Source: Gemmatimonadota bacterium
GTDB lineage: Bacteria; Gemmatimonadota; Gemmatimonadetes; Gemmatimonadales; Gemmatimonadaceae
DNA: 51,430 bases
Reading direction: 5' to 3'
Assembly (NCBI GenBank): GCA_031372565.1
Contig: JANMLN010000018.1
Location: forward strand, 1-51,430
Position 1 is the stretch's first letter; each line of letters starts with the position of its first letter. The notes beneath the pieces were generated by a model. That model had not been told where the DNA came from. It made no database searches and saw only the letters and a program-made list of their open reading frames with translations. Both the position numbers and the translations under genes were made by a program. This document shows, one piece after another, positions 27,737 to 31,684 of the stretch.

Positions 27737-29017
27737 TCAGGCGACGGCCGTCGCCTTGGCCGTGCCACTCACCTTGCGCAGCATCGCATTGCCCTGATCG
27801 CGCGACACCGCCTCGGCCAGCTGCGCACGCGCCCACTCGATGGCCTCGACGTAGAGCGGCGGCAGCGCGGTCGGCTCCACGCCAACCGTCTCGCTGAGGC
27901 GGAGCACCTCCGGCCAGTCGCCGGTCTCGTACGCCTCCGAGAGCGCAAGCACCGCGCCATAGAAGTCGGCGCGCGAGGTGAGCGCGGCCGCCACATCCTC
28001 CGAGAGTTCGAGCCGCACCACGAGCTCGTCCATGTTGGCGCAGAGCAGCGTGTCCAGCATCGAGAACAGGCCGACCATGAACAGCGAACCGCCTGCCTTG
28101 CGAATGCCACATGCTGCGGCGACGGCCTCGCAGAAGCGCGCGCGTGTGAGCGAGAGATGCGCCACCTCGAGCGCAACCCCGCGTTCGCCTGCACCACTCA
28201 CGAGGAGCAGCGAGAGCCACCGATAGAGTGTCTGCCGACCGAGGAGTCTGATCGCGTGGCCGATCGTGTGGATATTGCGCCCGCCCATCGACGCCGTGTT
28301 CACCAGTCGCAACAGCTTGTACGTGAGGACCATGTCGCGCCGGAAGCCCTCCTCGATGGCCGTGTCGGACTGTTGCGGGTCGCGAATGGTCTTCATGAGG
28401 CGAAACGCGTGCACGTGGTCGATCCCCACATCGCGCCGCGGCAGCACTTCCGGCCGTGTCTGCCGATAGCCGTGGAACAGCTCGATGCCCGCCTCGAAGC
28501 ACCGGTCGCGCGATGTACTGTTGTACACGCCGCTGGCCAGGCAATGCGCGCCATGTGCGCCGAGCCCTCCCACGACACGAGCGAGCGCCTGCGGTGGCAA
28601 CGTCGAGGCGTCGAGCCGCACGATGTGGGCGAGGCGCAGCATGGCGGGCGCGTGCATGGCATCGGTCGCATGCACCGCGATCCGGTAGCCATCTGCCGCG
28701 AGCGACCTGCAGGCCGCCACGAGTTCGTCATCCACCGGTGTGCCCGGCAAGAGCGACAAGACCGCGCGCCGCGGATGCACCACACGCACGGCGCCGCGAA
28801 CCAGCACCGAGCGCGACACGGGCAGAAAGGCCGGACGACCCTCAGCCACGCGATCGAGACCAAGCGTGAGACACGCCTCGAGGATCACCCGCTCAGACGC
28901 AAGCGCCGCCTCCGCATCGTCGGCCACCACCTCTCCGGCGTCCAGGTACGACAGGTCGAACGCAACGAGGTTCTCGCTGGCGTCGAAGATCGGCTGGCGG
29001 GACAGGAGTAGCGTCAT
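27737..29017 (-). CDS. Degenerate EAL plus HDOD domain protein (YuxH/CdgJ-like)
   Basis: RQPIFD start, LTYKLLRLVN, AIRLLG, RARFCE, FMVGLFSMLD. Start ATG 29017. Confidence 0.88.
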   Translation of the reverse strand: MTLLLSRQPIFDASENLVAFDLSYLDAGEVVADDAEAALASERVILEACLTLGLDRVAEGRPAFLPVSRSVLVRGAVRVVHPRRAVLSLLPGTPVDDELVAACRSLAADGYRIAVHATDAMHAPAMLRLAHIVRLDASTLPPQALARVVGGLGAHGAHCLASGVYNSTSRDRCFEAGIELFHGYRQTRPEVLPRRDVGIDHVHAFRLMKTIRDPQQSDTAIEEGFRRDMVLTYKLLRLVNTASMGGRNIHTIGHAIRLLGRQTLYRWLSLLLVSGAGERGVALEVAHLSLTRARFCEAVAAACGIRKAGGSLFMVGLFSMLDTLLCANMDELVVRLELSEDVAAALTSRADFYGAVLALSEAYETGDWPEVLRLSETVGVEPTALPPLYVEAIEWARAQLAEAVSRDQGNAMLRKVSGTAKATAVA

Positions 29018-29121
29018 CTCTTCCGAGTTTCGGCCATGGGCGAGTGAGCTTGAGGTCACCAGCGGGGACAACTCCCCCGCCCCCCCTTGCGGCCGACGGC
29101 GACGAGGCGTTACCTAGAGGC

Positions 29122-29214
29122 ATGTTGATCGCCCCCGCCACGCGCCCGTACTACTTCTCGTCTACCAGCTATCGGTTTACACCGGGAGCTGCGGGCGCGT
29201 ACGTGTCGGTCTGA
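29122..29214 (+). CDS. Tyr/Phe-rich leader peptide (30 aa, MLIAPATRPYYFSSTSYRFTPGAAGAYVSV)
   Basis: Translated by hand (below the ORF-track cutoff); 4 Tyr and 2 Phe including YYF; lies upstream of a terminator and pheA. Confidence 0.8.
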   Translation: MLIAPATRPYYFSSTSYRFTPGAAGAYVSV

Positions 29215-29253
29215 GTCCACCACAGACAGCACGAACTCCCCAAGGCTCCCGGT
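29166..29253 (+). promoter_or_regulatory. Attenuator alternative structures (protector and antiterminator)
   Basis: 29166-29176 can pair with 29181-29191. Alternatively ACCGGGAGC (29181-29189) is perfectly complementary to GCTCCCGGT (29245-29253), the terminator 5' arm. Confidence 0.75.
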
Positions 29254-29276
29254 TTCTCCGGGGGCCTTTTTTGTTT
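29242..29276 (+). terminator. Intrinsic terminator (attenuator) upstream of pheA
   Basis: AAGGCTCCCGG-tttct-CCGGGGGCCTT followed by TTTTGTTT. Confidence 0.88.
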
Positions 29277-29296
29277 CCCGCTCTCTCTCCATCCGC

Positions 29297-30169
29297 ATGT
29301 CACGCTTGCCGTCGTCCGAGTCGCTGTCACCGGGGCTGGTCGCCTTCCAGGGCGCGCGCGGCGCCTACAGCGAGGATGCGCTCCGCCTCCTCTGGCCGTC
29401 GGCGCGTCCGGTTCCGATGCGGAGCAACCTTGATGTCGCGCGTGCGGTCGCGACGGGTGCGGTCGACGCGGGCGTGCTACCCGTCGAGAACACGCTCGCG
29501 GGGAGCGTCGTGGCCACTTGGGATGCCATCGTCGCCACCGAAACCGTCCACGCAATCGCCGAAACGGTCGTGCCGATCCATCACTGCGTTATGGCGCCAC
29601 ACGGTGCGTCGCTCTCTGACCTGGTCACGGTCGCGAGTCATCCCGTGGCGCTCGATCAGTGTCGTGGCTGGTTCCTTCGGCATCCGCACGTGCGCGCCGT
29701 GGCTGCCGAGGACACCGCGGGAGCGGCGGCCGTGGTCGCGTCGAGCGGGAACCGGACGTGCGGCGCCATTGCCGGGCGCGGCGCAGCGGCGCTCCACGGT
29801 CTTTCCATCCTCGCCGAGAACATCGAGGATCGGCCCGACAATCAGACGCGCTTTCTGGCACTGGCACGCGCACCACGGCCGGTCGTCGAGGGCGTACTCT
29901 GCCGCACGAGTCTCGTGCTCGCGACGGCGAACATTCCGGGTGCGCTCGTCGCCGCCCTCACGCCACTCGCGGCACACGGCCTGAACCTGACGCGCGTCGA
30001 GTCGCGTCCGACCGGCGAGCCGTGGACGTACCGCTTCTTCGTCGATGTGCAGCACGAGGCTGGCAGCCGCGCGTTCACCGATGCCTTGGCCGCCCTGTCA
30101 CACGTCGCCACGGTGCGACTGGTGGGCACGGTCCCCGCGCACGCATCACACCTCGGCGCGCCGTCCTGA
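29297..30169 (+). CDS. pheA: Prephenate dehydratase with ACT domain
   Basis: FQGARGAYSE, PVENTLAGSV, SHPVALDQC, NQTRF, NLTRVESRP. Confidence 0.95.
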   Translation: MSRLPSSESLSPGLVAFQGARGAYSEDALRLLWPSARPVPMRSNLDVARAVATGAVDAGVLPVENTLAGSVVATWDAIVATETVHAIAETVVPIHHCVMAPHGASLSDLVTVASHPVALDQCRGWFLRHPHVRAVAAEDTAGAAAVVASSGNRTCGAIAGRGAAALHGLSILAENIEDRPDNQTRFLALARAPRPVVEGVLCRTSLVLATANIPGALVAALTPLAAHGLNLTRVESRPTGEPWTYRFFVDVQHEAGSRAFTDALAALSHVATVRLVGTVPAHASHLGAPS

Positions 30170-30261: not shown

Positions 30262-31347
30262 ATGATCCTGGTCATGTCGCCTCGCCACACCGACGCCGAA
30301 CTCGACGACCTGCGCGAGCGCGTCGAACGCACCGGCGCGCGCACCGTCGTCTCCCGAGGTGCCGGACGCACGATCGTCGGCTGCGTCGGTGACCACGACG
30401 CGCTCGAGTCGGTCGCGCGCCTCGCGCTCACCGGCGTCGAATCCGCCACGCCCATTCGCACGCCGTACAAGTTGGCCGCACGCGGCATCGCCGCCGATCG
30501 CTCCGTCGTGCGCGCGGGACCGGGCGCGGGCGTGGCGATTGGTGCTCATGCGCTGGCGGTCATCGCCGGACCGTGTTCCGTCGAAGGGCGCGACATGCTG
30601 CACACCACGGCGCGAGCCGTGCGCTCATCAGGCGCGGTCATGCTGCGGGGAGGCGCGTTCAAGCCGCGCTCCTCGCCGTACGCGTTCCAGGGGTTGGGCG
30701 TCGAGGCGCTCGAGATGCTGGCCGAGGTGCGCGCGGTGACCGGCATGCCCATCGTCACGGAGGTCCTCGACCCGCGTCAGGTCGACCTCGTTGCCGCGCA
30801 TGCTGACGTGCTCCAGATCGGCGCTCGCAACATGCAGAACTTCGCGCTCCTCGCCGAAGTTGGCAGGGTGCGACGACCGGTGCTGCTCAAGCGTGGCATG
30901 TCATGTACGGTCACCGAACTGCTGCTCGCCGCCGAGTACGTCCTTGCGCAGGGCAACCCCGACGTCATTCTCTGCGAGCGCGGTATCCGCACGTTCGACA
31001 CGGTCACGCGCAATTGTCTCGATGTCGGCGCGATCGCAGCGCTGAAGGCAGAAACGCACCTTCCGGTGATCGCCGATCCGAGCCACGCGGCTGGCCGCGC
31101 GGACCTCGTGCTGCCACTCGCGTGCGCGGCGGTCGCCGTCGGTGCCGATGGCCTGATCGTCGAGGTCCACCCGGAGCCCGCGCGCGCCCGCAGCGATGCA
31201 GACCAGACGCTCACGCCGCACCAGTTCGCCGAACTGATGGCGGCCATTGCACCGGTGGCGCGTGCGGTTGGGCGCGCTCTTTCCGAGCCTAGGGCAGCGG
31301 CGTTACCGAGCGCCGAGCCGACGCACTGCCGGCGGGCCCATGCCTGA
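30262..31347 (+). CDS. aroF: 3-deoxy-7-phosphoheptulonate (DAHP) synthase, type I-beta with N-terminal regulatory domain
   Basis: IAGPCSVE, RGGAFKPRSSPY, QIGARNMQN, CERGIRTF, DPSH, SDADQ. Confidence 0.95.
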   Translation: MILVMSPRHTDAELDDLRERVERTGARTVVSRGAGRTIVGCVGDHDALESVARLALTGVESATPIRTPYKLAARGIAADRSVVRAGPGAGVAIGAHALAVIAGPCSVEGRDMLHTTARAVRSSGAVMLRGGAFKPRSSPYAFQGLGVEALEMLAEVRAVTGMPIVTEVLDPRQVDLVAAHADVLQIGARNMQNFALLAEVGRVRRPVLLKRGMSCTVTELLLAAEYVLAQGNPDVILCERGIRTFDTVTRNCLDVGAIAALKAETHLPVIADPSHAAGRADLVLPLACAAVAVGADGLIVEVHPEPARARSDADQTLTPHQFAELMAAIAPVARAVGRALSEPRAAALPSAEPTHCRRAHA

Positions 31348-31684
31348 TTCGCCTGACACGCAGGTCGCCGCGTCGCCAGCCGCACCATCCGCGATGGCGG
31401 CCGACGCCGATCTCGCGCGATGGCGCGCGGACATCGAGGCGATTGATCGCCAACTCGTCGCGCTGCTCGCCGAACGCATGCGGTTGGCACGATCCGTCGG
31501 TGGTGCCAAGCGGGCGGCACGGGTGCCGATCGTGGACCCGGTTCGCGAGGCCGCCGTGGTCAGGCGCGCCGGAGCGCTGGCGCGCGACGCCGGGCTCCCC
31601 GACGAGGACGTACGACGGATCTTCTGGCAGGTGATCGAACTCGCGCGCCGCACGCAGCTCGAAGACGCGCCGATGACGGACTGA
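31340..31684 (+). CDS. Chorismate mutase (AroQ type)
   Basis: LARWRADIEAIDRQLVALLAERM..VGGAK..DPVRE. Start ATG 31340 overlaps aroF. Confidence 0.9.
   Translation: MPDSPDTQVAASPAAPSAMAADADLARWRADIEAIDRQLVALLAERMRLARSVGGAKRAARVPIVDPVREAAVVRRAGALARDAGLPDEDVRRIFWQVIELARRTQLEDAPMTD

Follow-up and report, generated by a model that had tools for sequence, protein, structure and literature searches.

Leader-peptide attenuators with mixed control codons, such as thrL (Thr/Ile) and ilvL (Ile/Leu/Val), bring several end products of a branched pathway under one leader. The leader described in this work differs from these in its amino acids and in the operon that it would control, which includes the entry enzyme of the shikimate pathway.

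The aroR-aroF operon of Corynebacterium glutamicum has a Phe-Tyr-Phe leader for which, in the account given in PMC11802643, Phe limitation is effective and Tyr limitation is not; the aroR leader is also noted in PMC4046766 and PMC3890552. As described there, it resembles our locus in having adjacent Phe/Tyr codons in a leader before a DAHP synthase operon, with stalling leading to read-through, and it differs in its phylum and in its FYF order, the comparison being one of descriptions. Compared with aroR-aroF, the Gemmatimonadota family reported here typically has 4-10 aromatic codons, includes Trp in 38/68 leaders and precedes an operon that also holds pheA and a chorismate mutase (CM) gene. 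In Escherichia coli, according to PMC11802643, aroF and aroH are under the TyrR and TrpR repressors.

The enterobacterial pheL-pheA (RF01859), trpL and pheM-pheST systems share with our locus a leader ORF, control codons and a protector/antiterminator/terminator arrangement, with pheA downstream in the first of them. However, the window (the whole 51,430-nt stretch of Gemmatimonadaceae DNA analysed here) is not a member of the Rfam Phe_leader family, since it scores 17.7 bits (E 2.2) where the gathering threshold of the family is 55. The working definition of pheL in PMC3082878 is at least five Phe codons, two of them adjacent, within 60 nt, and the survey in that paper places pheL outside the Gammaproteobacteria in Bacteroides and Desulfobacterium only; the window's leader, with two non-adjacent Phe codons, falls outside the definition as given there.

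Leaderless sensory ORFs are described in Actinobacteria. Mycobacterial leaderless poly-Cys ORFs are reported to control translation by unmasking a ribosome-binding site (10.1101/834739), and PMC4046766 cites an ilvB leader of C. glutamicum that lacks a ribosome-binding site. As these accounts present them, such attenuators have a sensory ORF at the 5' end of a leaderless mRNA, which is also what we predict here, whereas the translational control of the poly-Cys ORFs contrasts with the intrinsic terminator of the window's leader. The comparison literature further included PMC1173090 and PMC1183508. In the literature searched we have found no description of an aromatic leader attenuator in Gemmatimonadota; Lopatovskaya 2010 may mention Gemmatimonas, and the string 'Gemmatimonad' is absent from the main text of PMC4833913, whose supplements may list the phylum.

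Here we describe a classical ribosome-coupled transcription attenuator ahead of a pheA-aroF-CM operon, which we hold to be real and very probably functional. The mechanism is a textbook one and not new; the family to which it belongs is spread over several Gemmatimonadota families, and with it leader-peptide attenuation, and probably leaderless sensing too, would reach a phylum abundant in soil and sediment that has little regulatory annotation. Its sequence, predicted folds, conservation and genomic specificity are presented below.

Materials and methods

pheA was searched in 41 and then in 301 genomes, and to the loci returned we added 100 extra regions, which were picked from the matches and are not a random sample; Gemmatimonadota-like loci from DAHP synthase matches were also taken in. 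The codon-window count leaves out 26 duplicate loci, 1 deltaproteobacterial locus and 7 loci with less than 300 nt upstream. Upstream regions were anchored on the hits; extrapolation of aroF starts from full-length seeds misplaced the genes without the N-terminal FXD domain. Loci of genomes marked as unpublished enter the search tallies only, and no claim is built on them. The set of 68 leaders consists of 59 aroF-operon loci, one short locus, seven clear pheA-first loci and the same-genus relative G001. A held-out set was obtained by a phylum-wide aroF search with 40 further regions, two short loci being excluded.

To model ribosome positions, we took each codon in turn as the A site, masked the mRNA to 12 or 15 nt past its first base and folded the rest at equilibrium under a thermodynamic model. 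As a stand-in for co-transcriptional folding, the transcript was cut ahead of the terminator 3' arm. In the covariation test the register was set by the antiterminator core alone and the columns scored were held out.

Results and discussion

The leader region

The leader and its hairpins (Table 1) occupy a 280-nt gap that separates pheA from a divergent gene with an HDOD domain (27737-29017, minus strand), and a convergent priA lies beyond the operon. The operon genes belong to the pathway that makes the amino acids presumed to be sensed, as expected of an attenuator. Among the closest DAHP synthases, those with informative titles come from Gemmatimonadaceae, Gemmatimonas, Gemmatimonadales and Longimicrobiales, at 60-66% identity, in agreement with the phylum assigned to the window. 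No Shine-Dalgarno-like sequence precedes pheA (29277-29296), and a pyrimidine-rich stretch lies before its start, likewise in G001.

Table 1. Features of the leader region and operon in the window
Feature	Coordinates	Strand	Description and basis
Putative -35 hexamer, TTGCGG	29087..29092	+	TTG/TTT -35 in the same register in 56/67 relatives' leaders
Degenerate -10, TTACCT or TACCTA	29110..29116	+	5-6 nt ahead of the leader ATG; register as the TANNNT-like box of relatives
Leader ORF	29122..29214	+	30 codons, MLIAPATRPYYFSSTSYRFTPGAAGAYVSV, 4 Tyr + 2 Phe; predicted, probably leaderless
Protector (anti-antiterminator)	29140..29200	+	Inner helix 29166-29191, outer helix 29140-29148/29192-29200; predicted fold
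Likely control codons Y10-Y11-F12 and Y17	29149..29172	+	Masked-ribosome folding and cut-transcript model
Antiterminator	29181..29253	+	29181-29190 pairs with 29244-29253, enclosing the inner hairpin; predicted fold and held-out column test
Inner hairpin with leader stop codon	29202..29233	+	-11.9 kcal/mol; counterpart in G001
Intrinsic terminator hairpin and U-tract	29242..29276	+	Terminator search and folding
pheA, prephenate dehydratase (PDT + ACT)	29297..30169	+	Domain matches
Family I DAHP synthase of the aroF type, carrying a ferredoxin-like domain (FXD) at its N terminus	30262..31347	+	Second, patchily distributed paralogue
Chorismate mutase type II (CM_2)	31340..31684	+	Domain match

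The initial annotation had recognised here the short ORF with TAC-TAC-TTC (29149-29157) and three more Tyr/Phe codons, which we locate at Y17, F19 and Y27, and had drawn a protector, a 9-bp perfect antiterminator and a terminator with a U-tract, all of which the folds reproduce at the same positions. The predicted energies are -11.7 kcal/mol for the inner protector helix, -41.5 kcal/mol for the whole antiterminator hairpin (29180-29256), in which 29181-29189 is perfectly complementary to 29245-29253 with one additional U-G pair, and -21.1 kcal/mol for the terminator, whose stem (29242-29268) has 11 pairs, 8 of them G-C. Two elements had been overlooked, namely the outer helix, which closes the protector and leaves YYF unpaired in between, and the inner hairpin with the stop codon, possibly a pause element or one that keeps basal read-through low. 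The stop-to-terminator distance is 29 nt, against a median of 28 (range 16-49) in 59 leaders; at this spacing a ribosome at the leader's stop would not reach the terminator.

These features are rare by chance. When the intergenic region was shuffled by dinucleotides, an ATG/GTG ORF with at least five aromatic codons in 10 arose in 1/1000 shuffles, and one with at least four in 26/1000; a perfect complement of at least 9 nt to the terminator 5' arm was seen in 2/2000, and the folding z of 29122-29296 is -2.84. A comparison of aromatic content among frames (0.213 vs 0.038 and 0.060) was discarded as evidence, being partly circular, as the frame had been picked by its aromatics.

Ribosome position and terminator folding

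Folding with a masked leader, as the initial annotation had suggested, gave the expected switch in the window. The predicted terminator probability is 1.00 with no ribosome, with a ribosome on the early codons, from R18 onward and at the stop codon, and it drops to 0.41-0.62 when the A site is at F12-S14 (mask +12) or at Y11-S13 (mask +15). The proposal that a stall at YYF frees the antiterminator therefore holds at equilibrium for Y11-S14 and fails at Y10, where neither mask gives a switch, nor is there one at Y11 with the +12 mask. In the cut-transcript model, the antiterminator persists through Y17 and disappears over R18-P21. In these models, YYF and probably Y17 would be able to sense, whereas F19 and Y27 would come too late, because a ribosome stalled beyond Y17 would cover the antiterminator, which stays free only for stalls at Y17 or earlier. 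Thus, in silico, antiterminator and terminator exclude each other, the former being freed at the control codons and covered beyond them.

The same tendency was found among relatives. The codon with the lowest terminator probability is aromatic in 33/59 leaders, when 17.8 were expected and 2/20000 simulations were as high. At equilibrium only 26/59 leaders go under a terminator probability of 0.6 at any ribosome position, so most would need kinetic, co-transcriptional folding. In the cut-transcript model, upstream pairing of the terminator 5' arm averages 0.86 when an aromatic codon holds the ribosome but 0.30 when the ribosome has reached the stop codon, a drop that is in part trivial because masking takes away the pairing strand; this pairing is greater at aromatic codons than at the stop in all 59 leaders.

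Recurrence in the phylum

Upstream of the loci whose operon contains an aroF of the window's type (the window counted in), at least four Phe/Tyr/Trp codons in 10 were present in 59/62 and at least five in 42/62, kin being non-independent, so that these locus counts and those below overstate significance and are not probabilities. The corresponding values are 90/926 and 10/926 for genes of the window's own genome, 22/62 and 8/62 for pheA loci without aroF, and 1/11 and 0/11 where pheA is divergent from aroF or lies apart from it. Inspection of the 62 aroF-operon loci showed three (L157, L189 and L193) to have no leader. A perfect-stem terminator was found in 59/68 leaders, and the remainder have bulged stems or weak U-tracts.

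The phylum has two DAHP synthase paralogues, a universal housekeeping copy (~50% identical) and a patchy second copy (58-69%). Among the held-out loci of the second paralogue, a terminator lies downstream of an aromatic codon window in 22/40; in 18/40 this has at least four aromatics, and the other four positive loci have three per window and were judged by eye. The 22 come from families f1, f2, f4, f7 and f8. Leader and terminator together were found in 0/18 housekeeping-paralogue loci and 0/7 unassigned loci of the held-out set. Of the 18 negative second-paralogue loci, 15 are in family f7, where the element is missing from 15/17 loci (L266, L268, L274, L277-L281, L285, L287, L289, L290 and L292-L294, mostly with a 160-350 nt upstream gap and neither leader nor terminator). 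It is possible that the second DAHP synthase of this family is under another control mode.

In the window's own genome, the housekeeping DAHP synthase (G000:C38:11890-12942, L230) has no leader and is flanked by a metallo-beta-lactamase-fold gene before it and a LolA gene after it; the same order, with a LolA-like gene after it, is seen in L232-L236. An smc-like gene lies ahead of this group in G000, G002, G003 and G004.

Some variants of gene order were also noted. In one genus (L131, L145, L146, L149, L151-L153, L166 and L024), pheA and aroF(-CM) are divergent, and the attenuator is on the aroF side only, the pheA side having no leader. pheA and the DAHP synthase form one long ORF of 568-710 codons, a possible fusion, in L007/L206, L009 and L012/L193, that of L193 with an extra N-terminal part of ~120 residues. 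A prephenate dehydratase fused with a type I chorismate mutase (PDT + CM_1) occurs in L129, L143 and L195. The terminator-like hairpins of L205, L024, L152 and L153 have a weak U-tract, and in L205 an additional hairpin covers the region ahead of the translation start, which may add a translational component to the control of this locus.

Codon content and covariation

The 68 leaders are 20-41 codons long, and 37 of them contain all three aromatics (Phe, Tyr and Trp); 27 have Phe with Tyr, three Phe only and one Tyr with Trp. When only codons early enough to free the antiterminator are considered, all three aromatics are present in 25/59 and Phe plus Tyr in another 25/59. Ahead of the antiterminator core, 30% of the leader codons are aromatic, whereas the share falls to 5% beyond it and is 6.9% in the genes of the genome. 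The stretch that best complements the 5' arm of the terminator starts 3-23 nt past an aromatic codon, typically near codon 20. The peptides are conserved in composition and position and not in sequence. U-ending codons are over-used (TTT in 99/192 Phe codons, TAT in 74/172 Tyr codons) with respect to the own-genome genes (13% and 21%); this genome has one GAA and one GTA tRNA, and the bias may serve to slow decoding through wobble or to keep the structure weak.

The held-out antiterminator column 2 is Watson-Crick in 32/57 leaders with four pair types (16.1 when shuffled, 0/5000), and columns 1 and 3 in 34/57 and 22/57, which is modest relative to the shuffle (176 and 72 of 5000). Cognate against swapped terminator arms gave a mean z of -1.2 and best rank in 7/59, a weak test because the G-run/pyrimidine-run core is common to the loci. 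The aligned sequences thus point to a partial covariation of the antiterminator. The comparison of orthologues proposed in the initial annotation bore out the Tyr/Phe-rich short ORF, often with Trp as well, and bore out covarying helices in part.

Promoter and probable leaderless start

The weak promoter proposed just upstream of the leader survives in its -35, TTGCGG being a fair hexamer, and not in its -10, which in either frame (TTACCT or TACCTA) is non-consensus; a promoter scanner returned 0 promoters in 28500-29700. Among relatives, whose leader starts were chosen blind to promoters, a -35 and -10 pair ends 5-8 nt ahead of the start in 40/67 leaders, compared with 3/1619 control positions, and a Shine-Dalgarno sequence precedes the start in 0/67. 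Furthermore, in the window's own genome TANNNT peaks 6-8 nt ahead of the ATG (58, 35 and 32 of 1283 genes vs about 4 per position), so leaderless starts are ordinary there. The leader mRNA is therefore probably leaderless, judging from the relatives and the genome-wide signal and not from the window's own -10.

Proposed mechanism

The in silico switching at YYF, the recurrence of leader and terminator in the phylum and the partial covariation of the antiterminator all support attenuation of the trpL/pheL type, as the initial annotation had held. We infer where transcription starts, that the leader is translated and stalls ribosomes, how strongly and in which sense the operon is regulated, and to which amino acids it would answer. 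The transcript would begin at or beside the leader AUG. With ample charged Tyr- and Phe-tRNA, the ribosome would pass codon ~18 and cover 29181-29190, and the terminator would form. If charged tRNA were scarce, the ribosome would stall at YYF (or Y17) and occupy the protector 5' strands, leaving 29181-29190 free to pair with 29244-29253 before the terminator 3' arm exists, and RNA polymerase would continue into pheA-aroF-CM. With no ribosome, the protector would form and termination would be favoured. The cassette would then provide an inducible extra DAHP synthase and Phe/Tyr branch enzymes alongside the housekeeping DAHP synthase, which has no such leader, and the shikimate pathway of these bacteria is probably rationed between a housekeeping enzyme and an attenuated second copy.

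That the window's leader senses both amino acids is plausible, and we regard it as reasonably likely, although for Tyr we infer the sensing. The same attenuator could report a single amino acid (Phe, or Tyr), the other codons being structural or weak. As presented in PMC11802643, the Phe-Tyr-Phe leader of aroR responds to Phe and not to Tyr limitation, and F12 is the clearest equilibrium switch of the window at the +12 mask while Y10 gives none; this variant of the attenuator is nevertheless doubtful in our view, because the 68 leaders contain nearly as many Tyr codons as Phe codons (172 vs 192), runs of Tyr with little Phe occur in several of them, and Y11 and Y17 are inside the permissive zone. 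The roughly 90 natural variants found here (Phe-only, Phe+Tyr and Phe+Tyr+Trp) constitute a panel for asking, beyond the C. glutamicum case, when mixed control codons give multi-amino-acid sensing.

A relative with a single aromatic codon

In G001, pheA is found at the same site beside the HDOD gene and neither aroF nor CM accompanies it there, the genes directly after it being convergent and threonine-pathway-like; the sole DAHP synthase found in this genome (79% complete) is of the housekeeping type. G003 and G004 have no cassette at the equivalent site. The G001 leader is within one codon of the window's in length and retains the protector, the outer helix (preserved through changes on both sides), the antiterminator and the terminator. 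Its single aromatic codon, for Phe, corresponds in position to Y17 of the window and is, in the cut-transcript model, the last one where the antiterminator survives. This leader would be the outcome of decay or else of a retuning to Phe. Set side by side, the two leaders of the genus suggest that pheA-aroF-CM in the window has a YYF...Y leader where pheA alone in G001 would have a sensor with a single Phe codon. Phe-only leaders occur in 3/14 pheA/CM-first loci and 0/54 aroF-first loci, very small numbers that give hints of control codons being retuned with operon content.

The helices retained in G001 without YYF, and the weak -10 of the window, would also agree with a constitutive premature terminator or general translation-coupling device capping basal expression, with the aromatic codons as a remnant in the genus. 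We consider this very improbable, as the window keeps five aromatic codons in 10 (the density reached in one of the 1000 shuffles) exactly where the model switches, and the loss in G001 accompanies that of aroF and CM from the site and spares a Phe at the last permissive codon. Competing helices are also general to switches controlled by a protein or ligand (T-box, TRAP-like, riboswitch or TnaC-like stalling of the nascent peptide by a free amino acid), with an ORF that is incidental or sequence-specific, but this is hardly credible here, given that the Rfam scan of the window gave no family at gathering score, no T-box or known riboswitch and only chance-level matches by E-value, that the peptides are not conserved in sequence, and that the aromatic codons are in a frame whose start keeps a fixed distance to the promoter.

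As a tentative picture, which we would not call likely, the phylum would possess a widespread family of leaderless attenuators. Each leader would work as an OR-gate, responding to Phe, Tyr or Trp at the entry of the shikimate pathway, and its codons would be retuned with the operon.

Other loci of the genome

Among 1078 scanned genes of the window's own genome, 41 have a 5' terminator-like hairpin and, by inspection, only the window's leader is convincingly amino-acid-rich. A Phe-rich stretch before C56:28604 was rejected as a leader, as it has no ATG start and the hairpin is upstream of the stretch. The 160 bases before the trpE-like gene (G000:C162:3168-4703) showed no evident leader rich in Trp; this gene is a solitary one, with genes of the opposite strand on either side, and is not near the attenuated operon. 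A prephenate-dehydrogenase-like gene (G000:C132:45571-46617) is likewise distant from this operon, at the end of a dap cluster.
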